A DNA stretch of 59,394 bases, filler included. It is 6 parts of 6 records of this genome, joined end to end, with 100 filler letters (N's around TTAATTAATTAA, not from the genome) between each part and the next. Parts side by side here need not be neighbours in the genome. Positions count along the whole stretch, not along the records: positions 11,363 to 18,241 come from SRR31156797_14140; 5 more parts are not named here. One strand, given 5' to 3'. The notes beneath the pieces are model-generated. The model ran no database searches, had not been told where the DNA came from, and saw only the letters and a program-made list of their open reading frames with translations. Shown here piece after piece: positions 11,263 to 52,104 of the stretch. The position numbers and the translations under genes were made by a program. Every line of letters begins with the position of its first letter. Position 1 is the stretch's first letter.

Positions 11263-11362
11263 NNNNNNNNNNNNNNNNNNNNNNNNNNNNNNNNNNNNNN
11301 NNNNNNTTAATTAATTAANNNNNNNNNNNNNNNNNNNNNNNNNNNNNNNNNNNNNNNNNNNN
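11263..11362. other. Artificial contig spacer (N run with TTAATTAATTAA)
   Basis: 100-nt spacer; base composition changes across it. Confidence 0.98.
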
Positions 11363-11391
11363 TCATAAATATGATGATTAAATACTTCCAT
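11363..11391 (-). CDS. N-terminus of a DUF2023-like protein (truncated by the gap; not in the ORF track)
   Basis: GAGGAG RBS, then ATG giving MEVFNHHIY(E), which I recognise as the DUF2023 N-terminal motif. Only 10 codons are visible. Confidence 0.6.
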
Positions 11392-11434
11392 TCTCTTTTC
11401 TCCTCTAATTGTTTTAAGTTTTTATGATTCAAAA

Positions 11435-11683
11435 CTAATCGTTTTTCTTTCCGGTTAATATCCAGTATTTCCCAAATCCCTTACAATATTTCGCGCTACC
11501 TCTCATAGGACATAATCCTTTTAGCTCACAATCAGAGCAGCTCATTGTGCTAAATAGTTTCTTTTTCTCCATCCCCTTAAATATATACTCCAATAATACT
11601 GAACTTATTTTCATTTCATGCAATAATTGCCGAACTTCAATTTCTTTCTCTTCTTCTATTTTATTTATTATCTTCTCGATCAT
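11435..11683 (-). CDS. FeoC-like winged-helix protein with a Cys cluster
   Basis: Helical N-part followed by CSDCELKGLC...C; DUF2325/DUF2023 neighbourhood. Confidence 0.6.
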   Translation of the reverse strand: MIEKIINKIEEEKEIEVRQLLHEMKISSVLLEYIFKGMEKKKLFSTMSCSDCELKGLCPMRGSAKYCKGFGKYWILTGKKND

Positions 11684-11719
11684 AAAAGCCTACTTTCTAC
11701 AATAATTTAGCTAGACTTT

Positions 11720-11738
11720 TATTTTGATCCTCAAAGTT
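11720..11738. promoter_or_regulatory. Second copy of a TATTTTGA-N3-TCAAAATA-like operator
   Basis: TATTTTGA-TCC-TCAAAGTT upstream of the FeoC-like gene, nested within a larger AATTTAGCTA...TAGCTAAATT inverted repeat. Confidence 0.4.
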
Positions 11739-11753
11739 TTTAGCTAAATTTTT

Positions 11754-11867
11754 TTACTTACTACAGCATTCATCACTTTTTCCCTGTTTACAGGCACAAG
11801 CGTTACCACAATTACATTCATGTTTTTTATCCAGTTTTTCATTATTTATTGAAATTTTATTATCCAT
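11754..11867 (-). CDS. Uncalled 37-aa Cys-rich (metallothionein-like) peptide MDNKISINNEKLDKKHECNCGNACACKQGKSDECCSK
   Basis: Translated by hand; GGGGGA RBS; 6 Cys and 1 His in CxC-x3-CxC-x7-CC; co-oriented within the operon. Confidence 0.7.
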   Translation of the reverse strand: MDNKISINNEKLDKKHECNCGNACACKQGKSDECCSK

Positions 11868-11917
11868 ACTTCCCCCTATATTATTTTCTTATATAAATTT
11901 TAACTAAATAGCTTTTA

Positions 11918-12205
11918 TTAATGCGTACAGCCAATCTCTTCCAAGCTTTCTTTTAAACAATTGATACCACTTGCATTTGCTTTGATAAGAGTTATGTCAT
12001 TTTTTCTACATAATTTATAACACTCTTTTGCCATTTTGTGACTACATGTTTTTGTCATTAATATACATGCATCTACATTTTGAATTTTTTTAGTAAAATT
12101 AGGACAGTTCTGATTGAACAACTTACACTTATAGTTATAATCTTTTACTGTATCCTTATACTGTCTTTCGATACTTTTTACACCACCAATAATTGCAACC
12201 GTCAT
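11918..12205 (-). CDS. DUF2325-domain protein
   Basis: MTVAIIGG...DACILMTKTCSHKM...SGINCL pattern; GGGAGG RBS places the start at 12205. Confidence 0.8.
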   Translation of the reverse strand: MTVAIIGGVKSIERQYKDTVKDYNYKCKLFNQNCPNFTKKIQNVDACILMTKTCSHKMAKECYKLCRKNDITLIKANASGINCLKESLEEIGCTH

Positions 12206-12226
12206 ATCTTGCACCTCCCGTTTTTT

Positions 12227-12288
12227 TATTTTGAACCTCAAAATATTTCTTTCACTTATAACTTATCACACTTTCGTTTTATAGTCAA
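12227..12288 (-). promoter_or_regulatory. Sigma70 promoter (TTGACT-N17-TAAGTT with TGn extension) plus downstream palindrome TATTTTGA-ACC-TCAAAATA
   Basis: -35 at 12288-12283, -10 at 12265-12260; perfect 8-3-8 inverted repeat at 12227-12245. Confidence 0.55.
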
Positions 12289-12481
12289 TGTTTTTTTGAG
12301 TTTTACATATACCTGTTTTTAATGTTAACGATATATTTTATAAATAACTTCTTTTTTTAATTGTTATTGATTTTAATTTTTAGCCTTTTGCAATATGGGT
12401 TAGCAATTAAAATTACACATGTTTTTAATAAAGTGAAAAAATAATGAATTTACAAATTTTTTCATATACTTTTTAGCATAT

Positions 12482-12506
12482 AAAAAGCAAGCCCCAAAGG
12501 GCTTGC
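12482..12506 (-). terminator. Intrinsic terminator after the ASCH gene
   Basis: GCAAGCCC-TTTG-GGGCTTGC followed by a T run on the minus strand. Confidence 0.8.
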
Positions 12507-12521
12507 CAAATAAATTTAACT

Positions 12522-12989
12522 CTAATATACTTTTTCAAACTCCTCCAAAACTACCAACATATCCTCATTAAATTCAATATTCATTTCTTTACATCGATTA
12601 ACGTAACACTCATTATGAACTCTCTTCCAATAACCCAGTGTTTTATCTCCCTCACCCTCTCTATATGCAAATTCCTCACTTACATCTTTGAATGGCATTA
12701 CCATAACTTTTGTTGTTTTAATTATACAGACAGCATTCCCTTCCCAATCAGTTATAATGCTCAAATCGCCCTCTTTTGGAATTTCATCTCCTTCAACTTC
12801 ATAATCATAATGAAGTGAAGTTGTTGCTCTTTTAATTCCTTTATTCGTTAGTTCCGCGAGTTCATTTGCATTTTTTTCATCAGCACAAAAATGCCACGCT
12901 TCATAACTTAATTGCTCTTTTTCTATCTGACTATCCAATTGATCTAAATAATTATTCCACATTTTTTCTATAGTTGTATTTTTAGTCAT
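12522..12989 (-). CDS. ASCH-domain protein
   Basis: GIKRATTS (GxKxATxS) and FAYREGEGDKTLGYWKRVH motifs. Confidence 0.9.
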   Translation of the reverse strand: MTKNTTIEKMWNNYLDQLDSQIEKEQLSYEAWHFCADEKNANELAELTNKGIKRATTSLHYDYEVEGDEIPKEGDLSIITDWEGNAVCIIKTTKVMVMPFKDVSEEFAYREGEGDKTLGYWKRVHNECYVNRCKEMNIEFNEDMLVVLEEFEKVY

Positions 12990-13185
12990 CTTGAACCCCT
13001 TTCAAATTATTTCTCGATATATTTAATAACATTTACCATAAAAAGTCCACTTTTCTTTTTTATACAACTCTTAGCATTTTTTATCTTTTCTTTTTAATTT
13101 TTAAAAATTTGATTTTGCTCACCTGATAAGGTAGAATTAACTTGTGAGTTTACGAAGGTAATATGATTATAAATGGAGGACGTAA

Positions 13186-14025
13186 ATGAAAAACACAAAA
13201 GTATGGTTTGTAACAGGAGCATCACAAGGTTTAGGTTTAGCACTGGTTAAACAACTACTAAAAAGCGGATACAAAGTTGCTGCAACTTCAAGATCAAAAG
13301 AAAGACTTGTAAAAGCTGTGGCAAATACAAGCGCAAATTTTCTTCCTATGAAAGTCAATTTATTGGATGAAAACAGAATCGCCGGAGCAATAAGTTCAAC
13401 TGTTAAAACTTTTGGTAAAATTGATGTTATAGTTAATAATGCCGGTTATGGTTTGGGGGGAAGTTTAGAGGAGATCTCCGATACTGAGATCAGAGATCAA
13501 TTTGATATTAACGTCTTTGCTATGACTAATGTAATTAGACAAGTAATGCCATATTTGAGAAAACAAAATTCCGGGCATATTTTCAATATATCTTCATTAT
13601 CAGGTTTTGTTGGTGATGCCGGTTTCGGGAGCTACAATGCAAGCAAATTTGCTATTACCGGATTAACTGAAGCTCTTGCTGCCGAGGTCAAAGCTTTTGG
13701 AATCGATGTAACATTAGTTGCACCGGGATTTTTTAGAACAAATTTTTTAAGTGAAACATCTGTTAAAATTCATGAAAAAATAATTGATGATTATAGTTTT
13801 ATTCATGATGTGATGGATTATCTACAAAACGTTAAAAACGGAACTCAGGAAGGAGATCCTGATAAAGCTGCTTTAGCAATGATAAAGGTTGCTCAATCAG
13901 AAAATCCACCACTTCACCTGTTTTTAGGCCCTGACGCTTATGAGAGAGTTAGCTCATATATCGAAGATATAAAGACAAGTCTGGAGACTTGGAAGGAGAT
14001 AACTTTATCAACTGATTTTGATTAG
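13186..14025 (+). CDS. Short-chain dehydrogenase/reductase
   Basis: TGASQGLG, VNNAGYG and YNASK motifs; GGAGG RBS. Confidence 0.92.
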   Translation: MKNTKVWFVTGASQGLGLALVKQLLKSGYKVAATSRSKERLVKAVANTSANFLPMKVNLLDENRIAGAISSTVKTFGKIDVIVNNAGYGLGGSLEEISDTEIRDQFDINVFAMTNVIRQVMPYLRKQNSGHIFNISSLSGFVGDAGFGSYNASKFAITGLTEALAAEVKAFGIDVTLVAPGFFRTNFLSETSVKIHEKIIDDYSFIHDVMDYLQNVKNGTQEGDPDKAALAMIKVAQSENPPLHLFLGPDAYERVSSYIEDIKTSLETWKEITLSTDFD

Positions 14026-14062
14026 AATTTTTTCGTTATGAATCTTTAAATTTTTCCAAACC

Positions 14063-14091
14063 TTGTAATTTCAATACAGAAATTGTATAAT
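14063..14091 (+). promoter_or_regulatory. Sigma70 promoter TTGTAA-N17-TATAAT for the HAD gene
   Basis: Near-consensus hexamers with a 17-nt spacer, about 50 nt before the ATG. Confidence 0.6.
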
Positions 14092-14139
14092 ATTTGTGTT
14101 GCTGACACTTCCTAAAATAAGCGACATAAGGAGATTTAT

Positions 14140-14937
14140 ATGAATAACGATATTAAAGTGATATCACTTGATTTGGATGGTACGCTACTTAACTCTGATC
14201 ATGAAATGTCAGAGGAAAATAAAAAGGTTTTACTTGAACTGGATAAAAAAGGGATAGATATTATCCTGTGCACCGGTAGGCCCTATAATGCAATGAAAAG
14301 ATTCAAGCAGGAGCTTGGACTTAGTCATCCTGTAATCTGCTTTAACGGAGCTGTTATGGTGGATAATGAGGAAAACTTTGTTTTTTCAACAACACTTAAT
14401 ACAGATATCTCAAAAGAGCTGGTTGAAGTGGGTCGTAAATATGAAATTTATCATCATGGTTTTGTAGGTAATGACTGGTTGCTTCCATTTAGAAGTGAGT
14501 ATTCTGAGAGTTATAAAAACAGAACTGGTTTGGTTGAAAATTTAATTAATTTTGATGATTATGACGAGCTTAATTTTATCAAAATGATGTTTATCGGAGA
14601 AAATGAAATTTTGCTGAAAATCTTTGATGAAGTAAGTGACAGACTTGGAGATAAAGTTTATAAAGCTTTCTCTAACCCTAACTATCTTGAAGTATTAAAT
14701 CCAAAATGTTCAAAGGCTAAAGCGCTTGATTTTTATCTAAAATCAAAAGGATTAGACAAAACTAATCTACTATCAATGGGTGATGGTGGAAATGACAGAG
14801 AGATGCTAAAATATTCTCAAATTGGTGTAGTTATGGAGAATGCTCCGGAAGAGTTAAAAGCTGAGTTTGATATTAAAGCTCCATCTAATGATGATAATGG
14901 AGTAGCTGTATTTTTAAGGGAATTTTTCGAGTTATAA
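14140..14937 (+). CDS. Cof-type HAD-IIB hydrolase
   Basis: DLDGTLL, CTGR, SK and GDGGNDREML motifs. Confidence 0.92.
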   Translation: MNNDIKVISLDLDGTLLNSDHEMSEENKKVLLELDKKGIDIILCTGRPYNAMKRFKQELGLSHPVICFNGAVMVDNEENFVFSTTLNTDISKELVEVGRKYEIYHHGFVGNDWLLPFRSEYSESYKNRTGLVENLINFDDYDELNFIKMMFIGENEILLKIFDEVSDRLGDKVYKAFSNPNYLEVLNPKCSKAKALDFYLKSKGLDKTNLLSMGDGGNDREMLKYSQIGVVMENAPEELKAEFDIKAPSNDDNGVAVFLREFFEL

Positions 14938-14956
14938 AATTAAATATTCTAAATAC

Positions 14957-14993
14957 AAAAAAACGACAGGAGAAATATCTCACTGTCGTTTTT
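14957..14993. terminator. Bidirectional intrinsic terminator
   Basis: AAAAACGACAG...CTGTCGTTTTT between the convergent HAD gene and the peptide ORF. Confidence 0.8.
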
Positions 14994-14996
14994 AAA

Positions 14997-15137
14997 TTAT
15001 TTTTTGATTGGTTTTATGATCACTACGTCGTCATTTCCAGAACCTGGATTAACTGAGCATGTTCCACCTTCACCAGCTATTGCAAAAGTTAACGATGTAA
15101 TCACTAACATCGCTAATAATAATATTAGTTTTTTCAT
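14997..15137 (-). CDS. Uncalled 46-aa secreted pro-peptide MKKLILLLAMLVITSLTFAIAGEGGTCSVNPGSGNDDVVIIKPIKK
   Basis: Translated by hand; AAGGAG RBS; ATGA overlap with the TPR gene stop; MKK, hydrophobic core and TFA/AIA cleavage site; terminator immediately after the stop. Confidence 0.85.
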   Translation of the reverse strand: MKKLILLLAMLVITSLTFAIAGEGGTCSVNPGSGNDDVVIIKPIKK

Positions 15138-16450
15138 ATCTCATTCTCCTTTTCATTTAATCTAAAAAACATAGTTTTTATTTCATCTTCTAAGTTATTT
15201 TCTAGAAAGTATAATGTTAAATCAAAAAAAAGTTCTTTTAAATTAAATTTTTTTCTATTTTCCAATATATAATTAATTATTGTTTTAATCAATTTAAAGT
15301 CATCTTTATTTGCATTCTTTATTGCAAGATGCAATACCTTTTCTCTAGCTCTTATACGTTTTGAATTTTTTAATTCAATTTTCATAATTTCAATTGCACA
15401 AAGTAAAATATCGTCTTTTTTTCCTAAATATTTACTTATTAAGCATAAATTACAGATTCTGAGAACTTTCGCTTTATAAGGCATATTAATTGGGACATGT
15501 TTTTTAGAAGAAAATGCTGTTAATTTTATTGAATTATACAGTTCTGCTACTTTTTCTCGCTCATTCATCAGCATATATAATTCAGCTCTGTTACTTATCA
15601 CATTCTCAATTTGTTCAGTCATTCCGGTTCCGTTATTTTGTATTGTCAAATATAATTTCTCTGCTTCTGCAAATTTCCCTAGCATTGCTAAGCAATGCCC
15701 CATTTGAAAATTTGCCTCAAATTCCAAATGCTTAAGAGACTCTTTGAACTTTAAATCCTTAACTAATTCTAAACTTTTTTCAAATTGATTTAATTTTGCA
15801 AATGCAATCCCCAAGTTCAATTTTATCACATTAAAGTGTTCTAATTTTTTCTCTGGAATCTGATTAATTAAATTATATAAAAATACTGCTTTTGAAAGTT
15901 CATCAAGTTGCTGATAATAATAAGCAACCCTACGACAAATAACATCCACTTTATCAAACAGTTTATTCTCAATATAAAAAAGTAAATTTTTCTCATAATG
16001 TTCCATTGACCTGCGCATCGCCATGTCCATATCTAAATTCTCAAAAAAGAAATTCCCCAATTCATAATTCAGATATAACTCATTTGAATAAGCACAATCC
16101 TTTAATATCTCCTGAGCACCTAAATATGCGTCTTCAATATTTTCACCCTGACGCATTTGTTTTAGGATTTTTTCAGCCTCTTTTCTTTCTTTTACCTCTT
16201 CTTCAAAGTAAAATTCAGAGACATCTACTTCTCTAGTACTTGCTTTTTCTTTTAGCACCAGATTCATTCTCTTCATAATTTGAGTTGCTTTTGTTTTCGT
16301 TAAACTCCTACGTTGTTTGATTACATCAATAATATCTCGTTCATAAACTGTTGAGTCAGCAGTTTTTCCCGCTATCTCTTTTTTAGTTAACTCTAATTTC
16401 CCTATAGTGCTTTTTAATTCCATAAAAGCACTTTTCTTTTTTCTACCCAC
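15134..16450 (-). CDS. HTH plus TPR-repeat regulator (RRNPP-like)
   Basis: N-terminal LELTKKEIAG...RRSLTKTKATQIMKRMN resembles an XRE HTH; TPR helices (LNLGIAFAKLNQFEKSLE, FQMGHCLAMLGKFAEAEKLY). GGGAG RBS favours GTG 16450 over the ORF-track start at 16495. Confidence 0.7.
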   Translation of the reverse strand: MGRKKKSAFMELKSTIGKLELTKKEIAGKTADSTVYERDIIDVIKQRRSLTKTKATQIMKRMNLVLKEKASTREVDVSEFYFEEEVKERKEAEKILKQMRQGENIEDAYLGAQEILKDCAYSNELYLNYELGNFFFENLDMDMAMRRSMEHYEKNLLFYIENKLFDKVDVICRRVAYYYQQLDELSKAVFLYNLINQIPEKKLEHFNVIKLNLGIAFAKLNQFEKSLELVKDLKFKESLKHLEFEANFQMGHCLAMLGKFAEAEKLYLTIQNNGTGMTEQIENVISNRAELYMLMNEREKVAELYNSIKLTAFSSKKHVPINMPYKAKVLRICNLCLISKYLGKKDDILLCAIEIMKIELKNSKRIRAREKVLHLAIKNANKDDFKLIKTIINYILENRKKFNLKELFFDLTLYFLENNLEDEIKTMFFRLNEKENEI

Positions 16451-16497
16451 GCCTTTTCTCCCATTTTTTGCTTTTATAACTCTAAATAACACCACTC

Positions 16498-16560
16498 AAT
16501 GTTAATTTTTGCAAAAATTAACATTTTGCCTTTGACAATTTGCAAATTTAGGTATAAAAT
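16498..16560. promoter_or_regulatory. Perfect 28-bp palindrome, a second TTTGCAAA palindrome and a plus-strand TTGACA-N17-TAAAAT promoter
   Basis: AATGTTAATTTTTG/CAAAAATTAACATT at 16498-16525; AATTTGCAAATT at 16537-16548; -35 at 16532-16537, -10 at 16555-16560. Confidence 0.6.
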
Positions 16561-16604
16561 TAAATAGAAATGTCGTACTAAGACATTGATACTATTAAAA
16601 TTAC

Positions 16605-16859
16605 TTATACTTTTTTATCTGCAACATAATCCATAATAGTGTTGTCATCTAGAAACCCCGAAACTTTATAAAGTTCAATTACGTTAATTTTTAGAATTCT
16701 CGCAATTCTCATCAAAGTATCAGGTTTTGGAAATCTTTTATCATTTTCAATTTGCGACATTCGTGCTTTTGAGATTCCGTGTATTGCAAAATGCCCTAGT
16801 GAAAGCCTTCTTTCAAGCCTTTGTTTTTTAATGTACGTACCCACCGTGATTTTTTCCAA
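16605..16859 (-). CDS. XRE-family HTH regulator
   Basis: GTYIKKQR...GISKARMSQIEND..PKPDTLMRIARIL; AAGGA RBS before TTG. Confidence 0.88.
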   Translation of the reverse strand: MEKITVGTYIKKQRLERRLSLGHFAIHGISKARMSQIENDKRFPKPDTLMRIARILKINVIELYKVSGFLDDNTIMDYVADKKV

Positions 16860-16910
16860 AACAATCAGTCCTTTTTGCTAGATTCTTAAAAGTTAATTAT
16901 ACCAAATAAA

Positions 16911-16965
16911 ATTACTGAAAAAAAGGAAAAAGTTATCAAAAAGTTATCAAAAGATTACTGAAAAA
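16911..16965. repeat. Short direct repeats: ATTACTGAAAAA x2 flanking tandem AAAAAGTTATC x2
   Basis: Read directly in the divergent intergenic region; another AAAAAGTTATC lies at 17053-17063. Confidence 0.6.
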
Positions 16966-17024
16966 GTTTCAATCCCTATTTTTCAACGATTCATTCTATC
17001 AATATTATAAAGGAGATTTTGAAA

Positions 17025-17207
17025 ATGTCAAACTTAAATAAAGAAAAAATCAAAAAAGTTATCACTTTAGTAAAAAAAACTGAAAACACTGATAAAGAAT
17101 TTCTGAAAGTATACAGACCTCAGCTTAAGGAAATGAGTGAAGAGGAGCTTGATTTAGAAATTAGATTATTAGAAAAAGAGATTGCAGAAATGAAAGTTCA
17201 GGTATAA
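17025..17207 (+). CDS. Small charged helical hypothetical protein
   Basis: AGGAG RBS 9 nt before ATG 17025; followed by a terminator. Confidence 0.65.
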   Translation: MSNLNKEKIKKVITLVKKTENTDKEFLKVYRPQLKEMSEEELDLEIRLLEKEIAEMKVQV

Positions 17208-17231
17208 AAAATTATGTCTTATAATTAGTCT

Positions 17232-17269
17232 AGGCCAGAATGAAGTTCACTTTCAATCTGGCCTTTTTT
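17232..17269 (+). terminator. Intrinsic terminator
   Basis: AGGCCAGA...TCTGGCCT followed by a T run. Confidence 0.75.
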
Positions 17270-17298
17270 AATCACCAAGCAACACCGCAAGCAGACAA
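17269..17298. repeat. Degenerate copy of a CCGCAAGCRGAC element (IS200/IS605-end- or REP-like)
   Basis: 24 of 30 nt identical to 18212-18241 in the same orientation. Confidence 0.5.
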
Positions 17299-17346
17299 GC
17301 TATGATATAACAGAAAATCACTGCTATAGTTTCAAACTATCGTTTT

Positions 17347-18114
17347 TTAAAATTCAACAAAATATTCTCCTAATATTTTACGGTACGTTCCATCTGCTTT
17401 CATTTCTCTAATAGTTATATTAATCTGATCAATTTGATTAGCTAAAACAGATTTTTTCGACACTCCATAATACAGTGTTAATTTTGTCAATGGCTTTTCT
17501 GCACGTTTTATATTTTCAGAACCCTTAATTTCAGATAACAAATTTTGGGCAACCGAAAAAAATAAAGGTGTTATTTCAATTCTTTTTTTTATTAATTTAT
17601 TTATATTCAATTCATCATTTCTTACTTTATCAATCTTATAGTTATATTTTTGAACTGCCTCATCCCACTCTTTTGAGAATTGATATCCCCTGACAATACC
17701 AATATTATATGGCTCTAAATCTTTCCACTCTTCCCACTGGAAATCTTCTAATACTTCACTATTATAATATAAATAGACCGGATCTACATATATTGGATCA
17801 GTAAAAATCATATATTCTATTCGATCAATATTTTTCGTAAGCATAGGAATAAGATCACTATCACCACTTTTAATATTTGATAATGCTCTTGCCCAAGGTA
17901 CTGTATCTAATTTCATTTTGTAGTTTAGTCTCTCTAATAGTTCTTTTGTTAGATCTACCGCTAACCCTTCTGTAACATTTTGCTTTTTTTCATCTAAAGC
18001 TATCTCTCATGGCGGCCAGTGTTCTACGACAACAGAAATTTCTTTTGTATGAATATTTTGAATTAATAAATTAAACAATATCAATAAATAAATAAAATTT
18101 ATTATTTTCATCAT
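17347..18114 (-). pseudogene. Family 3 solute-binding protein interrupted by an in-frame TGA
   Basis: GAGGAG RBS, ATG 18114, signal peptide, EHWPP*EIA (TGA at 18009-18007), then the same frame continues through GLAVDL..VPWARAL..GIVRGY. Confidence 0.8.
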
Positions 18115-18211
18115 AGTAAACTCCTCTTTAACAATACTAAATGTAACTTAGTTAATTAATTTTGATTCCAGTCTTAAAAGTCCTTTCATTGAAATAATAA
18201 AAATTCACTTG

Positions 18212-18241
18212 TAATCACCAACCCACGCCGCAAGCGGACGG
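18212..18241. repeat. CCCACGCCGCAAGCGGACGG element truncated at the contig end
   Basis: GC-rich motif in AT-rich DNA; the contig breaks inside it; second copy at 17269. Confidence 0.5.
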
Positions 18242-18341
18242 NNNNNNNNNNNNNNNNNNNNNNNNNNNNNNNNNNNNNNNNNNNNTTAATTAATTAANNN
18301 NNNNNNNNNNNNNNNNNNNNNNNNNNNNNNNNNNNNNNNNN
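18242..18341. other. Artificial contig spacer
   Basis: N run with TTAATTAATTAA. Confidence 0.98.
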
Positions 18342-24355: not shown

Positions 24356-24455
24356 NNNNNNNNNNNNNNNNNNNNNNNNNNNNNNNNNNNNNNNNNNNNT
24401 TAATTAATTAANNNNNNNNNNNNNNNNNNNNNNNNNNNNNNNNNNNNNNNNNNNN
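24356..24455. other. Artificial contig spacer
   Basis: N run with TTAATTAATTAA. Confidence 0.98.
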
Positions 24456-34435: not shown

Positions 34436-36142
34436 ATGTCCATTCATCTCCACAAACGCACCCGGCCCGGCCGGGAGAAGGGTGCGGATCGGGTCCGCCC
34501 CAACAAGGGATGCGGCTTTCTTAAGGGATCTTTGCTGCTGATGTTGTTTTTGCTCATGGCCCCGGGGTGTTCAAAGGAGACCGAATCGAAAACACCCCCC
34601 CCTTCGGAACAGGTACTTCGAATCGGAACCGCCATGAAAATCAAACAGGCCAATCCGGTGGCGGATTATTATTACAATATCCTGGCCATGGTCATGACCC
34701 ATGATTCCCTGGTGCGGTTTGATGAAAAACTGAATCCGATTCCCCAACTGGCCCGAAAATTCGCATCCGATGAGTCTGCCAAAATCTGGACCTTTGAGCT
34801 GACCCCGGATGCCAAGTGGCATGATGGACGGCCGGTAACGGCCGACGATGTGGTCTTTACGTTTCGATACATGGCCCGAAACCATGGATCGGGAGCCTGG
34901 GTGGGCCATCTCATCGAAAATATTGAAGCCCGGGAAAATTGCGTCATTTTCCGGCTGAAAAGACCGTGCAGCAGATTTCTGCTGAATGCCGGTTTCGTGG
35001 TCCGGATTCTGCCGCGCCATATCTGGGAAAATATTTCCCATCCACGCCGGACCAAGGATACGGCTGTCACCGTGGGATGCGGCCCCTACCGGTTTGCGGG
35101 TTTTGACCGTAGCGCGGGGACCATCCGTTTCCATGTCAATGCCGACTACCACGGTTTTGTCCCCCAAGCGGACCGGGTCGATTTTTGCACCTACGGGACC
35201 ATGGATCTGCTGGCCCTGGCCCTGATCAAGGGGAGGGTGGATCTTTACTACCAGTACGCTTCCGGCTTGCCGGTTCCTTATGTGGATAAGCTCAAGGCCG
35301 AACCGGGTCTGGATTGCATGGAAGCGGCATCCATGGGAATTCCGGCGGTGCTGGGTTTCAACCTTTCCCGTCCATTGGTAAAATCCATCAAAGTCCGTCG
35401 GGCCGTTGCCCTGGCCGTGGATTATGCCCATATGAACAACTGTCTCATGAAAGGGAAAGGAAGGATTCCTTCCCCGGGACTGGTACCGCCGTCCTTTCCG
35501 GTTCATATGCATATGGCGCCATGGGTTCAAGATCTTGATCAAAGCCGCTCTCTTCTGGAATCCGAAGGGTGGGTGGATACAAACGGGGACGGTCTTTTGA
35601 ACACGCCCCAAGGCGAAAACGTCCAACTGACCCTTCTGGTTCGATCCGATTTATGGGGAGAAGCACAGATGGTAAAGCTGCTGGCCCGTGATTTTGAACG
35701 GGTGGGCATCGGACTGAAAGTTCGATCGGCGGATCTCTCCACCTATCTGGCATTTTTAAAGGGAGGAGACTACGACCTGGTGCTCTTTCGCACCACCCCC
35801 TGGGGCATGGTGATGCATGCGGGGTATGGCAGCGGATATTTTGACGCGAAAACATCCGGGCATCTCAACATGTGCCGTCTGAAGGATCCCGGATTTTCAA
35901 CCCTGTGCGACCGAATCTTGAGCACTCGCGATCCCCGAACCTTGAAAACCCTTTACACGAAACTGCAAAAATATTATGCGGAACACCTCCCCGCCGTGGC
36001 CCTGTGCTGGGGCCGAAGCTTCTTCCCTTACTCGGGAAAATGGCAAGGGTTTCAGATCAACCCCCTTGAAGGGGGGTTGGCAAACCGATTTTCCTGGCGG
36101 AGACTCAAGCTTTTAAATAGGGTTAAACCGGAGGGACCTTAG
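34436..36142 (+). CDS. Family 5 ABC substrate-binding lipoprotein (Nik/Opp/Cnt type)
   Basis: Lipobox APGC; WHDGRPVTADDVVFT and GCGPY motifs. Confidence 0.9.
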   Translation: MSIHLHKRTRPGREKGADRVRPNKGCGFLKGSLLLMLFLLMAPGCSKETESKTPPPSEQVLRIGTAMKIKQANPVADYYYNILAMVMTHDSLVRFDEKLNPIPQLARKFASDESAKIWTFELTPDAKWHDGRPVTADDVVFTFRYMARNHGSGAWVGHLIENIEARENCVIFRLKRPCSRFLLNAGFVVRILPRHIWENISHPRRTKDTAVTVGCGPYRFAGFDRSAGTIRFHVNADYHGFVPQADRVDFCTYGTMDLLALALIKGRVDLYYQYASGLPVPYVDKLKAEPGLDCMEAASMGIPAVLGFNLSRPLVKSIKVRRAVALAVDYAHMNNCLMKGKGRIPSPGLVPPSFPVHMHMAPWVQDLDQSRSLLESEGWVDTNGDGLLNTPQGENVQLTLLVRSDLWGEAQMVKLLARDFERVGIGLKVRSADLSTYLAFLKGGDYDLVLFRTTPWGMVMHAGYGSGYFDAKTSGHLNMCRLKDPGFSTLCDRILSTRDPRTLKTLYTKLQKYYAEHLPAVALCWGRSFFPYSGKWQGFQINPLEGGLANRFSWRRLKLLNRVKPEGP

Positions 36143-36145
36143 AGA

Positions 36146-37132
36146 TTGGCGCTTTTACGACATAAAATAGGGCGCTACGGGCTTTGCATTTTCTTTGTTT
36201 TAAGCCTGAATTTTTTCATCGTACACCTGCTTCCCGGTGATCCGTTGGTTCATCTGGTGGGAGAAGAGACCTATTTTCAGCTTCAGGGCGGAAATCCCGA
36301 GGCCCTTTCGGAACTTCGCGCCCAATACGGCTTGGACAGGCCTCTTTATGAACGGTTTTTCGTCTCCATGACCCATATTCTTTCCTTTCGTCTGGGTTGG
36401 TCCTCTCATTACGGAAAACCCGTGGTGGAAATTCTGTGGTATCGCCTCAAGTGGACCCTGTTGCTCCTCTTTCCGGCCATGGTTCTATCCGCGGTTTTCG
36501 GCCTGCTCCTGGGGTGTATTTGCGGTCGACCCGGAAAAAACACGCCGGATGGTTTCATGACGCCCCTTTGGCTTACGGTCTATTCGGTTCCCGCCTACTG
36601 CCTGGCTTTTCTGCTGTTGCTCCTTTTCGCCCATCTGGGAGATTTTTTCCCCCTGGGAGGCATGCGGGAAGTGTCCCGGACGGGGAATGCGGTTTTCGGA
36701 GATGTGTTGCGACATATGGTCCTCCCCTTGATGGTTCTTGTGCTGCATACCACGGCCTACCTCTATATGATCATGCGAAGCACCATACGTCAGGCTTTCG
36801 GAGCGGCCCATGTGTTGACGGCCGCGTCCAAGGGGCTGACGCCCGGGCGGGTGTTGATGCGCCATGTCCTTTTAAATGCCCTTCCCCCTTACATTGCGGC
36901 CGTGGCCATCAATTTCGGTTTTATTGCGGGGGGGGCGCTTTTGGTGGAGGTGGTCTTTTCCTGGCAGGGAATGGGGTCCCTCATGTACGAGGCGGTGTTG
37001 AGCAGGGATTATCCCATTCTATCGGGCTGCTTCCTCTTCCTCTCCTTTTCGGTCATAGGCTTTAACATCATGGCGGATCTTTTGTGCGGTTTCATCGATC
37101 CACGGATGAGGGATGATGCCGCGATTATGTAA
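36146..37132 (+). CDS. ABC permease (NikB/OppB type)
   Basis: LPGDP, YGLDRPL, VEVVFSWQGMG and RDYP motifs. Confidence 0.9.
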   Translation: MALLRHKIGRYGLCIFFVLSLNFFIVHLLPGDPLVHLVGEETYFQLQGGNPEALSELRAQYGLDRPLYERFFVSMTHILSFRLGWSSHYGKPVVEILWYRLKWTLLLLFPAMVLSAVFGLLLGCICGRPGKNTPDGFMTPLWLTVYSVPAYCLAFLLLLLFAHLGDFFPLGGMREVSRTGNAVFGDVLRHMVLPLMVLVLHTTAYLYMIMRSTIRQAFGAAHVLTAASKGLTPGRVLMRHVLLNALPPYIAAVAINFGFIAGGALLVEVVFSWQGMGSLMYEAVLSRDYPILSGCFLFLSFSVIGFNIMADLLCGFIDPRMRDDAAIM

Positions 37133-38915
37133 AGGGCGGGTCATATGGGCCCCTTCCGCATGCCTGTGTCTGCTTCTCGCGGCGGCCGCATTTCCAGGGC
37201 TCCTGGCCCCTTTTTCCCCCGGAGAGCTGGCGTTACCCTACATGCCGCCCGCCGGTCGGCACCTTCTGGGAACGAACCACATCGGGCAGGACCTGTTCAG
37301 CCAACTCATCTATTCGGCCCGCATGACCCTGGCCGTATCCCTTGGTGCCTCTTTTCTGGCCACGGGCATGGGAACCCTTGTGGGGTTGACGGCGGGTTAT
37401 AGGAGAGGGCGGTGGGACGGGTGGCTCATGCGCATAACCGATATATTCCTGCTCCTGCCGGGGTTACCCCTGATCATTCTACTGGCGGCCCACATGGATT
37501 CAGGAATGACCGGTATTGCCATGGTCATCGGCATGACCGCGTGGCCCGGCACGGCCCGGGTGATCCGCGCCAATGTGCTTCAGATAAGCCGGCGGAACTT
37601 CATTCGAAGCGCCGAGGTCATGGGGGCCGGGCCTCTGTATATCATGTTCGCCCACATCCTGCCCAATATCTTTCATGTGGTCCTGGCCAAAACCGTTTTA
37701 GCGGCGGCATCGGCCATGGTGACGGAAGCCGGCGTCAGTTTTCTGGGATTGGGGGATCCCCAGTACAAAAGCTGGGGCGCCATGTTGCACGAGGCTTTTA
37801 CCAACGGCGGTCTGTTGAACGGATGTTACGGGTGGTATCTCCCCCCCATCATCTGTATTTCCATGACGGTTCTCTGTTTGACCCTGGCGGGACGGAAATT
37901 GATGGGCGATGATGATCAAACCCTTCTCCCCGGACGCGCCGTGGGTCATGGTCCGCTGGGGTCCCTGAAACCCCGAAACGACCCATGCCTAGAGATAACG
38001 GATTTGTCCGTTGATTTCGCCAATCCCCACGGAACCCCCGTTCGGGCCATGGATCGCGTGAACCTGACGGTGAACCGGGGCCGGCATCTGGCGGTCATCG
38101 GGGAAACGGGCAGCGGAAAAAGCGTGCTGTTGCTGGCCCTTATGGGCTTGCTCCCTGAAAACGGTTCAGCCACGGGGGCGATCCGTTTTTGTGGACAAAA
38201 TCTTTTGGACCTTTCCGAAAGGGCATTTTGCAGGCTTCGGGGTCGATATGTGGCTTACGTTCCCCAAGGGGCCGGTCAGGCCCTGAACCCTTTGATTCGG
38301 GTGGGAGGGCAAGTGGCGGAGCCCCTTCGAGTTCATGAACGGATGTCCCGAAAGGAGGCCCTTCAAAAGGCCGTGGAGATGCTGGATCGAATGGGGATTC
38401 CCGATGCCCACGACCGAAGCCGGGAATATCCCCATCAATACAGCGGCGGCATGATCCAGCGGGCTTTAGGGGCCATGGGACTGATTTCGGGGGCGTCTCT
38501 CATACTTCTGGATGAGCCCACCAAAGGGTTGGATTCCGAAAACAAAGAGGCGATTTTTAATCTTCTTGAAGAATATGCGGAGGAAACCTTTGTGATGGTG
38601 ACCCATGACCTGCTTTTTGCAAAGCGGTTTTCCCACGAAGTGGCGGTTATGCTGAATGCTCGAATCGTGGAAAAGGCGCCTTCGCGCGTTTTTTTTGAAA
38701 CCCCCCTGCACCCTTATGCCAGGGCCCTGCTGAAGGCCCAGCCGAGCCATGGCATGCAGGTGGAAACCCCCTTTCATTCCGAACCATTCTCTGCATGGGG
38801 CTGCCCCTTTGCCGACCGCTGTCCACAGGCGGTTGGAAGATGCGGTCACATGCCTCCCATGATCAATATGGGCAAACGTTCGGTGCGGTGCTGGCTTTAT
38901 GATCCTGAAAACTGA
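37113..38915 (+). CDS. Fused ABC permease and ATPase (OppC-OppD type)
   Basis: HLLGT..GQD and HILPN, then GETGSGKS, YSGGM, DEPT, HPY and the Cys-rich C-terminus in one frame. Confidence 0.88.
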   Translation: MMPRLCKGRVIWAPSACLCLLLAAAAFPGLLAPFSPGELALPYMPPAGRHLLGTNHIGQDLFSQLIYSARMTLAVSLGASFLATGMGTLVGLTAGYRRGRWDGWLMRITDIFLLLPGLPLIILLAAHMDSGMTGIAMVIGMTAWPGTARVIRANVLQISRRNFIRSAEVMGAGPLYIMFAHILPNIFHVVLAKTVLAAASAMVTEAGVSFLGLGDPQYKSWGAMLHEAFTNGGLLNGCYGWYLPPIICISMTVLCLTLAGRKLMGDDDQTLLPGRAVGHGPLGSLKPRNDPCLEITDLSVDFANPHGTPVRAMDRVNLTVNRGRHLAVIGETGSGKSVLLLALMGLLPENGSATGAIRFCGQNLLDLSERAFCRLRGRYVAYVPQGAGQALNPLIRVGGQVAEPLRVHERMSRKEALQKAVEMLDRMGIPDAHDRSREYPHQYSGGMIQRALGAMGLISGASLILLDEPTKGLDSENKEAIFNLLEEYAEETFVMVTHDLLFAKRFSHEVAVMLNARIVEKAPSRVFFETPLHPYARALLKAQPSHGMQVETPFHSEPFSAWGCPFADRCPQAVGRCGHMPPMINMGKRSVRCWLYDPEN

Positions 38916-40520: not shown

Positions 40521-42962
40521 TTACGGGATGACGGCGCCGGCCAGAACCTCGCGAAGAACGGCCCGGATGTCATCCACCCGATACGGTTTGGTCAGTTTGG
40601 CGCAAAACCCGTTGGATCCGGGGTCGGCCATGACCGGATCGGTGGCGTAGCCGGACGAAACTATGGCCCTGACGCCGGGGTCCATCTCCTTAAGGCGGGC
40701 CAAGGTTTCCTTTCCTCCCATGCCTCCCGGAATGGTAAGGTCCAAGATCACGGCATCGAAACCCCCGCCATTCCGCCTCGCCCGCTCATAAGCTTCAATC
40801 GCCTCTGCTCCGTCGGCAACCGCGCACACCGTGTAGCCCAACGCAAGGAGGATCGACTCCATTACGGAGCGTACCGATGCCTCGTCATCCACAACGAGGA
40901 TATGTCCACCTCCCGATACGGCCCTTTTCCCAAAGTCCGCTTGCGCCTTCACATCCTCGTAAGACGCGGGAAGATAAACCGTAAATGTGGTTCCGACCCG
41001 CACCTGTGAATGCACCCCGATGTGCCCCCCGTGCTTTTGGATTATGGAATAACAACTGAACAATCCCAGCCCGCTGCCCTTCTCTTTGGTGGTGAAGAAA
41101 GGATCGAATATCTTGAATAGACGCTCCTCCGGAATACCGATGCCGGAATCGGAGACGGCAATCTTCACGTAATTCGCCGGCGGCAACGGAAGATCGTCAT
41201 CATGGGCCACCGTTACATTCTCGGCCCCGATACGGATCACGCCGCCCTTCGGCATTGCCTGATCGGCATTGATCACCAGATTATTGATCACCTGGCTGAT
41301 TTGTCCCGGGTCCGCCTTCACGTTGAACAAATCGTGGGAAATCCGAAATTCGCACTTGGCCCCGGAACCCCGTATGGCAAACCCGGCCGAATCTCGAATA
41401 ATATCTTCGATTGAGGTCGTCTCAAACAAGGGGGCCCCGCCTTTGGAGAACGTCAGCAGTTGCTGTGTGAGATCTTTCGCACGCAAGGCGGCTTTTTCGG
41501 CTTTGCGGATCAATTGCCCAATCTCGGTCCCCGCATCGGCATGGATACCGGCCAAGGAGATATTGCCGAGGATCGCAGCAAGAAGGTTATTGAAATCATG
41601 GGCGATTCCTCCGGCCAGCGTGCCGACGGATTCCAGTTTTTCAGCCTTGGCCAACTCCTCTTCCATGCGCTTTCGATCGGTAATATCCGTAATCATTGCG
41701 AAAGCGCCAAGCACGCTCCCGTCCCCGTCGAACATGGGCCTGGCATTGACAATCGTGAACAGTGTACTCCCGTCTTTTCGCAGCAAACTGAGATCATACT
41801 GGTCCCCGAGACCCCGCAGGCGCCTGGAAAACTGATTCTTGAAGCGGATCGCATTCTCCTCATCCAGAAAATCGCCGACCTTACGCCCCATCATTTCATG
41901 GACGGAATACCCCAGCATATGCGCCAGGCGCCCGTTGACGAATGAATAGCGCCCATGGAGATCAACAATTGAAATACCTTCTCCGGCCGTTTCAATGAGC
42001 ATTCGATACCGCTCCTCGCTTTGGCGGAGGGCCTCGGTTCTCCGGCGCACCTGCCCCTTGAGGGATCGGTTCCACACGGCGACCGCTGCCGCAATCAGCA
42101 GCAAAGCGGCCAACCCCGCGGAAACAAACAACATCCGTTTCCGCCACACAGTGTCGCGGGGCGCACCGAGATGGACCCATTTTCGATATATCCCGTCCCG
42201 GGTCTCGGGCGATATTCGTGTCAGAGCCTTATCAAGGATGCTTCTCAATTCCGGCCAGTCTTTTCGGCAGGCAATTCCCAGATCATACACATAGCCGGTC
42301 TCTCCAGCCGCTCTGAGATTGGTTATGCCTTCCTGATCGATAAAGTAGGAGGCCACCCCCATATGTGCAATGAGGGCATCCGTCATCCCGAAGGAAACTT
42401 TTCGTAATGCCGTCTTCACATCGGAGACCGGATCCAACAGGATACCGGGATAATCCCTGTGAACCCATTTTGTGGCCGCGAAACCCGCCACACAGGAAAC
42501 CGTCATCCCCTCAAGCATATCAAGGGTGACCGTACCTTTTACGCCGTTATGTACGATAATCACCACAGGGCAGTGCAGATAGGGTTTGGTGAAATTCATG
42601 AACCGGGAACGCTCCACGGTATTCATTGCCGACGGCTGCATATCCAGTCGGCGGGCCTTCAGCTTATCCCAAAGCCCCGTCCAGGAATCCTCAGGCGTCA
42701 CCGTAAACCTTATGCCGAGTTGCTCTTCAATCAGAGCAATGTAGTCCGCTGAGATACCGAGATATTCGCCGTTATTACCCGAAAATTCGATGGGGGGATA
42801 GCGCGTATCAAAGCCCATTCGGATATCCGGATGTTCAGCCAGCCATTGACGTTCGCTTTGGGTGAGGAAGTCCGTCGGCTCAACTCCCAACGATTGTGCG
42901 CCGGGGAGCAGCAACAGCATGATGGAAAGGAGAAAACCCGATAGGGATCTGATACTATTCAT
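40521..42962 (-). CDS. Hybrid sensor histidine kinase (periplasmic binding domain, PAS, HisKA, HATPase, receiver)
   Basis: YPPIEF, GGIAHDFNNLL, NLVINA, FDPFFTTK..GSGLGL, LVVDDE and ILDL motifs. Confidence 0.93.
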   Translation of the reverse strand: MNSIRSLSGFLLSIMLLLLPGAQSLGVEPTDFLTQSERQWLAEHPDIRMGFDTRYPPIEFSGNNGEYLGISADYIALIEEQLGIRFTVTPEDSWTGLWDKLKARRLDMQPSAMNTVERSRFMNFTKPYLHCPVVIIVHNGVKGTVTLDMLEGMTVSCVAGFAATKWVHRDYPGILLDPVSDVKTALRKVSFGMTDALIAHMGVASYFIDQEGITNLRAAGETGYVYDLGIACRKDWPELRSILDKALTRISPETRDGIYRKWVHLGAPRDTVWRKRMLFVSAGLAALLLIAAAVAVWNRSLKGQVRRRTEALRQSEERYRMLIETAGEGISIVDLHGRYSFVNGRLAHMLGYSVHEMMGRKVGDFLDEENAIRFKNQFSRRLRGLGDQYDLSLLRKDGSTLFTIVNARPMFDGDGSVLGAFAMITDITDRKRMEEELAKAEKLESVGTLAGGIAHDFNNLLAAILGNISLAGIHADAGTEIGQLIRKAEKAALRAKDLTQQLLTFSKGGAPLFETTSIEDIIRDSAGFAIRGSGAKCEFRISHDLFNVKADPGQISQVINNLVINADQAMPKGGVIRIGAENVTVAHDDDLPLPPANYVKIAVSDSGIGIPEERLFKIFDPFFTTKEKGSGLGLFSCYSIIQKHGGHIGVHSQVRVGTTFTVYLPASYEDVKAQADFGKRAVSGGGHILVVDDEASVRSVMESILLALGYTVCAVADGAEAIEAYERARRNGGGFDAVILDLTIPGGMGGKETLARLKEMDPGVRAIVSSGYATDPVMADPGSNGFCAKLTKPYRVDDIRAVLREVLAGAVIP

Positions 42963-43848: not shown

Positions 43849-43948
43849 NNNNNNNNNNNNNNNNNNNNNNNNNNNNNNNNNNNNNNNNNNNNTTAATTAA
43901 TTAANNNNNNNNNNNNNNNNNNNNNNNNNNNNNNNNNNNNNNNNNNNN
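43849..43948. other. Artificial contig spacer
   Basis: N run with TTAATTAATTAA. Confidence 0.98.
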
Positions 43949-52004: not shown

Positions 52005-52104
52005 NNNNNNNNNNNNNNNNNNNNNNNNNNNNNNNNNNNNNNNNNNNNTTAATTAATTAANNNNNNNNNNNNNNNNNNNNNNNNNNNNNNNNNNNNNNNN
52101 NNNN
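52005..52104. other. Artificial contig spacer
   Basis: N run with TTAATTAATTAA. Confidence 0.98.

Follow-up and report, generated by a model that had tools for sequence, protein, structure and literature searches.

RRNPP-type systems join a receptor built on tetratricopeptide repeats (TPRs) to a small exported pro-peptide, and RRNPP_detector (Bernard et al. 2023) searches for such pairs by five criteria, namely a small propeptide, its secretion by Sec, a receptor of ~250-500 aa, the presence of TPRs and the direct adjacency of the two genes (PMC10075063). In the accessible text of that paper the validated pairs range from 21 to 50 aa for the propeptide, from 285 to 473 aa for the receptor and from -50 to +191 bp for the gene spacing, while the search itself admits propeptides of 10-100 aa and spacings of -60 to +400 bp and asks for a high-confidence ribosome-binding site where the peptide is unannotated (PMC10075063). 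Secretion is accepted as Sec/SPI by SignalP or as a match to the SHP profile, and a filter on clusters asks that the N-terminal residues of the propeptide be basic and its hydrophobic centre long (PMC10075063). The survey, as this text describes it, covered only Firmicutes and viruses, and from complete genomes of these it lists 11 known subfamilies and 21 candidates; its authors also state that the helix-turn-helix (HTH) of AimR escapes public hidden Markov models (PMC10075063). For NprR, 18 helices forming nine TPRs and a full-length mass of 51 kDa are given in the accessible part of another report (PMC3763537). Here we describe a gene for a candidate TPR receptor of 438 aa and an open reading frame (ORF) for a candidate pro-peptide of 46 aa, together at positions 14997-16450 of a stretch of DNA of 59,394 bases (the window), which may form a new pair of this type. 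The window is a pseudomolecule in which six contigs, mixed and metagenome-like, are joined, and since these are unrelated, only the contig at 11363-18241 (6,879 bp) is informative on the pair and on its host.

Candidate receptor and pro-peptide genes

The pair and its immediate signals comprise the following features:

15134-16450, minus strand: candidate receptor gene, 438 aa, 51.8 kDa, predicted cytoplasmic; ORF with start and Shine-Dalgarno sequence read
14997-15137, minus strand: candidate pro-peptide ORF, 46 aa, ATG at 15137-15135, stop codon TAA
15146-15151, minus strand: AAGGAG, the peptide ORF's Shine-Dalgarno sequence, within the 3' end of the receptor gene and 8 nt ahead of the peptide ATG
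15075-15137, minus strand: signal-peptide-like part, residues 1-21, of Sec/signal peptidase I type, ending in A-I-A
15000-15074, minus strand: polar tail GEGGTCSVNPGSGNDDVVIIKPIKK, residues 22-46 (25 residues, GEGG...KPIKK)
14959-14993, both strands: intrinsic terminator, bidirectional, separating the peptide ORF from a convergent HAD gene; an inverted repeat followed by U7

As claimed in the preliminary description, a protein of about 438 aa, which we read from GTG 16450 to TGA 15136-15134, has a stop codon that shares bases with the ATG of a 46-aa ORF (ATGA, 15134-15137), and the AAGGAG ribosome-binding site of that ORF was found at 15151-15146. The terminator said to stand directly after the peptide ORF is also present, as a hairpin at 14959-14993 that begins 4 nt past the peptide stop, folds at -19 kcal/mol (z -6.5, 0 of 200 shuffles being as good) and runs into U residues. 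The best start of the receptor is GTG 16450-16448, served by GGGAG at 16462-16458 with a 7-nt spacer; its frame is open upstream to GTG 16495 (453 aa), the alternative starts span 429-453 aa, and ATG 16423 in the same frame has no Shine-Dalgarno sequence. The receptor carries a single TPR_2 repeat (PF07719) by Pfam (E 1.9e-6; 28 bits, cut-off 27), and neither a transmembrane-like segment (maximum 19-residue hydropathy 0.95) nor a signal peptide was seen in it. Its N-terminal 75 residues have an isoelectric point (pI) of 10.3, with 20 K/R to 9 D/E, and the remainder a pI of 6.4. Neither NCBIfam nor PHROGs gave a match to it.

The proposed Sec signal peptide and polar tail were borne out in composition, as the peptide opens with an n-region MKK, continues with a 17-residue uncharged hydrophobic stretch (maximum 7-residue Kyte-Doolittle mean 3.4) and presents A-I-A at -3/-1 without a lipobox, and the tail that follows is polar, with a pI of 6.1, a mass of 2.5 kDa and one Cys. 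By a signal-peptide rule of our own making, composed after the peptide had been inspected, the peptide ORF alone passes among the contig's 30 small ORFs (30-100 aa), and 200 simulated contigs yield 0.02 passes per contig, none of them with a Shine-Dalgarno sequence. Given the composition of the contig, a frame stays open for 46 codons with p ~0.014. The in-frame codon score of the peptide ORF is 0.35 per codon as against 0.20-0.375 for the genes of the contig, and both sense off-frames score below zero; an antisense frame over the ORF reaches 0.47 per codon, and the codon score therefore leaves the strand unfixed. A chance origin of the peptide ORF is unlikely. Searches of the peptide against Pfam, NCBIfam and PHROGs returned no family above any cut-off, and the NCBIfam matches below them (such as the Bd0108 type, 17.9 bits against a cut-off of 40) were rejected as confined to the signal peptide and far short of the cut-offs.

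Set beside the RRNPP_detector signature, the propeptide of 46 aa, the receptor of 438 aa and the spacing of -4 bp with AAGGAG 8 nt upstream all agree with it, as does the C-terminal TPR region with its one Pfam TPR match above cut-off. The MKK start and hydrophobic core of the propeptide agree with the cluster filter of the paper, and the secretion criterion may agree, on a heuristic reading. The pair would enter the strict class of RRNPP_detector provided that SignalP agrees. Its arrangement is that of the peptide quorum-sensing pairs known from Gram-positive bacteria. This likeness to RRNPP systems is architectural, neither evolutionary nor functional.

Relatives and predicted structure of the receptor

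We compared the receptor with large protein and genome collections. HMMER, run over 1.84 billion cluster representatives, gave five proteins at E <= 0.001, of which none reached E <= 1e-10 and four match by TPR repeats only; the fifth, P0001 (418 aa), matches over nearly the full length (25% identity, HMMER E 8.6e-7, pairwise BLASTP E 1e-13). The N-terminus of P0001 is XRE-like, with HTH_3 at E 0.0016 and 18.9 bits, which is below the cut-off of 23, and its TPR matches are sub-threshold as well. A forced global alignment of the two proteins requires a 5-residue insertion in the N-terminal region. The word-indexed search of 5.8 billion proteins gave no match, and with a profile of the two sequences it returned P0001 only. 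No receptor homologs were found in GTDB species genomes, in five individual genomes, in 450 candidate stretches of IMG/VR, in 599 of JGI metagenomes, or by tblastn against phages (50,697 records) and plasmids; the 401 genomes of the phylum to which genome G001 belongs gave two weak matches, both TPR-only. Megablast of positions 12000-18200 against plasmids likewise gave none. By these searches the receptor is a near orphan, for which 1.84 billion representative proteins supply a single full-length relative.

The nearest ESM-Atlas clusters, in the ten rows listed, all bear HTH_3 and/or TPR, measure 375-435 aa, come mostly from Bacillota and stand at 0.95 each; this is a likeness by language model only, and HMMER at E <= 0.001 finds no such protein except P0001. 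A divergent HTH at the receptor N-terminus is plausible, as suggested by the basic helical N-terminus, the sub-threshold HTH_3 of P0001 and these language-model neighbours.

AlphaFold2 modelled the receptor with a mean predicted local distance difference test (pLDDT) of 64.5 from the single sequence and of 71.0 when P0001 was added, with a predicted template modelling score of 0.60 in the latter case. The model consists of four low-confidence N-terminal helices followed by 18 helices over residues 82-433, or about nine TPR-like pairs. Through Foldseek and VIA-align it matches TPR superhelices of all kinds at Z 14-18, values which for helical repeats do not discriminate. The best bacterial match is apo NprR (5dbk_B; VIA-align Z 17.1, 308 residues aligned, root-mean-square deviation 8.6), with RapI at Z 16.1, NprR-NprX at 14.3 and phage Raps at about 14, and a scan independent of Foldseek gave PlcR-PapR (2qfc) at Z 13.2 over 205 aligned residues, RapH at 12.7 and NprR at 12.1. 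As modelled, the fold is a generic TPR fold which is NprR-like in size and helix count. Complex prediction for the TPR domain of the receptor with peptide residues 17-46 scored 0.01 in both runs, which were made without controls, and is evidence neither way.

Putative regulatory surroundings of the pair

Upstream of the receptor gene we located the following features:

16498-16525, both strands: perfect 28-bp palindrome AATGTTAATTTTTG/CAAAAATTAACATT, lying 48-75 nt ahead of the receptor start
16605-16859, minus strand: gene for an HTH repressor of XRE/Cro type, 84 aa, on the strand of the receptor gene and 154 nt ahead of the receptor start
17004-17031, minus strand: consensus promoter of sigma-70 type (TTGACA-16-TATAAT, 12/12), ahead of the XRE gene
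17019/17025-17207, divergent from the XRE gene: 60-62-aa coiled-coil-like ORF with an AAGGAG ribosome-binding site and its own terminator at 17232-17264

The palindrome, with an arm of 14, is not reached in 300 first-order Markov simulations (maximum 13), and its half-site does not recur in the window at up to 2 mismatches. It may act as an operator for the receptor or for the XRE protein. The latter is identified by Pfam HTH_3 (6.4e-5, 23.4 bits against a cut-off of 23) and as a transcriptional repressor of phrog_3 (8.9e-10), and its gene is preceded by operator-like direct repeats at 16908-16965 (an 11-nt tandem and a 15-nt spaced repeat). No minus-strand promoter-like site of at least 9/12 lies between 16496 and 16604, while a 12/12 promoter stands before the XRE gene, so that XRE, receptor and peptide genes could possibly form a three-gene operon; promoter-like sites as such are not enriched (34 found, 35 expected).

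Two further observations concern this region. The divergent control region at 16860-17210, between the XRE repressor and the coiled-coil-like ORF, has the layout of a Cro/CI-like switch, on a contig without other phage genes. Beside the palindrome, a sigma-70-like promoter of 11/12 (TTGACA-17-TAAAAT) at 16532-16560 on the plus strand faces the 3' end of the XRE gene in antisense orientation.

Proposed mechanism and alternative explanations

We lean narrowly towards reading the locus as a two-gene receptor/pro-peptide signalling cassette of RRNPP type, a new candidate. Under such a scheme receptor and pro-peptide would be made from one transcript, possibly started at the promoter of the XRE gene, and would be translationally coupled through the ATGA overlap and the peptide's own AAGGAG. 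The pro-peptide would be exported by Sec and cleaved past A-I-A (residue 21), and extracellular trimming of its 25-residue tail would leave a short oligopeptide, whose most likely origin is the C-terminal part (..VVIIKPIKK). At high density this oligopeptide could be taken up again via an oligopeptide permease and bind the concave face of the nine-TPR superhelix, altering its oligomeric state and DNA binding; the 28-bp palindrome ahead of the receptor's own gene is a plausible target. Export, processing, re-import, binding, DNA binding and the genes regulated are all inferred steps.

A number of observations weigh against this scheme. The peptide has no homologs, with neither a word-sharing candidate nor an ESM-Atlas match, and its signal-peptide call was made with our own heuristic. 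Pfam, also when given the first 80 residues alone, and NCBIfam report no HTH in the receptor, and hhalign found no match between the two-sequence profile of receptor and P0001 and the neighbouring XRE protein. The significant alignment with P0001 opens at about residue 37 of the receptor, past the putative recognition helix, and residues 1-50 of the receptor model have a pLDDT below 50. Among PDB sequences, phmmer and profile searches matched only designed consensus TPRs, no RRNPP-specific model of Pfam or NCBIfam matches the receptor, and homology to Rap, Rgg, NprR, PlcR, PrgX, AimR, ComR, TraA, AloR, Qsr or QssR was not detected in PDB sequences, Pfam or NCBIfam. In structure, the highest score (Z 18.3) goes to eukaryotic TPRs of LGN/Pins, with many unrelated TPR proteins no more than 1-3 Z units away. 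The layout is known from a single locus, and no oligopeptide permease (Opp) or target gene is assignable within the 6.9-kb contig. What had been announced as an HTH-TPR receptor thus keeps its TPR part, by Pfam and by model, and its HTH was not picked up by Pfam, NCBIfam or hhalign; the claimed RRNPP-like pair holds in layout, which fits the five-point signature, and lacks detectable sequence homology to the RRNPP subfamilies; and the fold comparison proposed with RRNPP structures does bring NprR, Rap and PlcR among the matches, not separated from unrelated TPR proteins.

The TPR protein might instead be a regulator or scaffold that senses something else, with the small ORF encoding an unrelated exported peptide (periplasmic or extracellular, or antimicrobial-like) of the same operon. 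We regard this as unlikely, with a chance that is nevertheless appreciable: the TPR fold is generic and has no sequence link to RRNPP families, but the tight translational coupling and the private terminator mark one unit, and the tail, being short (25 aa) with a pI of 6.1 and one Cys, is unlike typical bacteriocins, which are cationic. The experience with RRNPP_detector speaks on both sides, as among its strict pairs only 34 of 76 clusters passed the filters and were kept as high-confidence, so that small clusters which carry the signature can be false, but 11,872 strict pairs out of 12,050 were kept (PMC10075063, accessible text). It is very improbable that the small ORF is not translated at all and that the 140 nt from the receptor stop to the terminator are a 3' untranslated region open by chance. 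The peptide is without homolog or family match and an antisense frame does just as well by codon score, but a frame of 46 codons is seldom open by chance (p ~0.014), its ATG has AAGGAG at 8 nt and the ATGA coupling, none of the 200 simulated contigs offered a signal-peptide-like ORF with a Shine-Dalgarno sequence, and the in-frame codon score is that of real genes, both sense off-frames being negative.

We consider it improbable, too, that the receptor is a Rap-like variant, that is, a TPR protein that does not bind DNA but inhibits the XRE repressor or a response regulator until the peptide relieves it, as in Rap-Phr or RappLS20. Such an arrangement would suit a receptor in which no HTH is detectable, which matches RapI, RapH and phage Rap structures at Z 12-16, whose gene has an XRE repressor gene directly upstream on the same strand, and whose 3' overlap with the peptide ORF recalls the phr/rap layout. 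Against it, the N-terminal 75 residues of the receptor are strongly basic (pI 10.3) and align to the XRE-like N-terminus of P0001, and the ESM-Atlas neighbours bear HTH_3. An RRNPP-type cassette with a receptor that may itself bind DNA is the reading we retain.

If functional, the pair would be a new and very isolated receptor/peptide family, from a bacterium without a close match in the collections searched, and would lend weight to the view that the diversity of RRNPP-type signalling goes beyond the catalogued 11 known and 21 candidate subfamilies.

Gene content of the contig and of the window

Outside the pair and its upstream region, the contig and the joints of the window carry the following:

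11263-11362, 18242-18341, 24356-24455, 43849-43948 and 52005-52104: linker (44 N, TTAATTAATTAA, 44 N) in five identical copies
11435-11683, minus strand: ORF of 82 aa, Cys-rich motif at its C-terminus, without Pfam match at E <= 0.1; adjoins the DUF2325 gene
11918-12241, minus strand: DUF2325 gene, E 4.7e-23
contig 11363-18241, after the DUF2325 gene: ASCH gene, E 3.5e-24
contig 11363-18241, after the ASCH gene: SDR gene (adh_short), E 6.3e-51
after the SDR gene, convergent with the peptide ORF: Cof-type HAD gene (Hydrolase_3), E 3.1e-61
17347-18114, minus strand: SBP_bac_3 gene with one in-frame TGA directly after ..EHWPP, where Trp would fit under genetic code 4

Past the HAD gene the order is receptor/peptide pair, 84-aa XRE-type repressor, divergent 60-62-aa ORF and broken SBP_bac_3 gene. 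The last is either a TGG-to-TGA pseudogene or the product of a sequencing error. Genetic code 4 (TGA as Trp) was weighed because of the in-frame TGA after HWPP and was rejected, as ten ORFs hold 13 TGG to this one in-frame TGA and the receptor itself ends in TGA. Around the broken gene, a relatively GC-rich motif of 31 nt (TAATCACCAA..CCGCAAGC.GAC) stands in two copies, at 17265-17295 and 18208-18238, which are identical at 26 of 31 positions; the second copy closes the contig, and the motif may be a REP-like or att-like repeat.

GC content stands at ~29-32% around the pair; the first and fifth contigs have 36-43%, and those between 18342 and 43848 reach values of up to 57%. The contig at 43949-52004 carries SusD-family, TonB-dependent receptor and GH3 genes, and 18342-43848 carries a sigma-54 activator, a sulfatase, a TonB receptor, Opp/Dpp-like genes and a hybrid kinase. 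The Opp-like genes (34436-38915) sit on another contig than the pair, at 52-57% GC. Among them, a single ORF of 600 aa at 37113-38915 on the plus strand joins BPD_transp_1 permease, ABC_tran and oligo_HPY ATPase domains, a fused Dpp/Opp permease-ATPase that adjoins an SBP_bac_5 gene and a TonB-dependent receptor. The hybrid sensor kinase, at 40521-42962 on the minus strand of a high-GC contig, has an N-terminal SBP_bac_3 domain followed by PAS, HisKA/HATPase and receiver domains. No rRNA, tRNA or Rfam matches were found in the window.

Host of the contig

A host among Fusobacteriota or other diderms, guessed in the preliminary description, is unsupported, as the window consists of unrelated contigs and nothing closely related to the 6.9-kb contig was found in the collections searched. 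The placement it proposed through the flanking HAD and SDR genes did not succeed, for these have no close relatives, with at most 41% identity in near-full-length matches. HAD matches go up to 30% identity and SDR matches up to 41% in GTDB species genomes, the latter value holding also for near-full-length SDR matches in JGI metagenomes, and an SBP pattern search for relatives gave none. Of 301 genomes of one Bacillota-type phylum, 229 match HAD at E <= 1e-20, with at most 35% identity among the matches listed. DUF2325 lies above cut-off in 10 of 21 genomes of the Clostridium-containing family of genome G001, a weak hint to Bacillota, and the ESM-Atlas neighbours of the receptor, mostly from Bacillota, hint in the same direction. 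One sequencing run contains the contig in full and is probably its source; the small shares in two others, an estuary metatranscriptome (0.08) and a sediment metagenome (0.06), do not count as evidence of habitat.

Shine-Dalgarno-like motifs precede most genes on the 6.9-kb contig. Genes of Bacteroidota are usually not so preceded, and the motifs therefore argue against a Bacteroidota host, unlike the neighbouring contig with the SusD-family gene. The SBP_bac_3 pre-protein has an N-terminal hydrophobic signal of cleavable type without a lipobox cysteine; binding proteins of monoderms are usually lipoproteins, and the cysteine-free signal is a hint to a diderm host. We hold a host within Bacillota in the broad sense to be moderately probable.

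The larger stake is RRNPP-type systems outside Bacillota, which hinges entirely on the identity of the host. In the accessible parts of the literature searched, RRNPP systems are described only for Bacillota and their mobile elements (PMC12700828, PMC9765709), and, judged by title, no RRNPP work on Fusobacteria was among the papers listed. To a non-Bacillota host, possibly diderm, with a functional pair, which would then be the first RRNPP-type system outside Bacillota, we give a small chance, on account of the SBP signal without a lipobox cysteine and the absence of close relatives of the flanking genes. Were a diderm host true, the Sec-exported peptide would have to cross and re-cross the outer membrane.

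Comparison with known systems

The pair resembles NprR-NprX in a receptor of ~51 kDa with 18 helices or nine TPRs in the model and a small N-terminal domain, and in a pro-peptide with a Sec signal (a putative one here) that carries the mature signal in its C-terminal part, as proposed for the tail here; nprX stands directly downstream of nprR. It differs from NprR-NprX in that no sequence similarity was detected, the receptor has no HTH by profile, no nprA-like target is adjacent and the peptide is unrelated. With Rap-Phr it shares a TPR receptor followed by a gene for a small exported pro-peptide, export being putative here, and structures of RapI, RapH and phage Raps were matched at Z 12-16; phr genes that abut or overlap the 3' ends of rap are the classic layout. 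However, Rap has no DNA-binding domain and acts on proteins, whereas the receptor here has a basic N-terminus resembling the XRE-type domain of P0001.

As in PlcR-PapR and AimR-AimP, the receptor is followed by a co-directional pro-peptide of less than 50 aa with a Sec signal, here a putative one. PlcR is far shorter (284 residues in the 2qfc chain), and the contig has no phage genes and the receptor no PHROG match; the HTH of AimR is missed by public models, as may hold for the receptor here. The receptor is also like the uncharacterised HTH_3-TPR regulators of Bacillota in ESM-Atlas, a likeness drawn by language model only.

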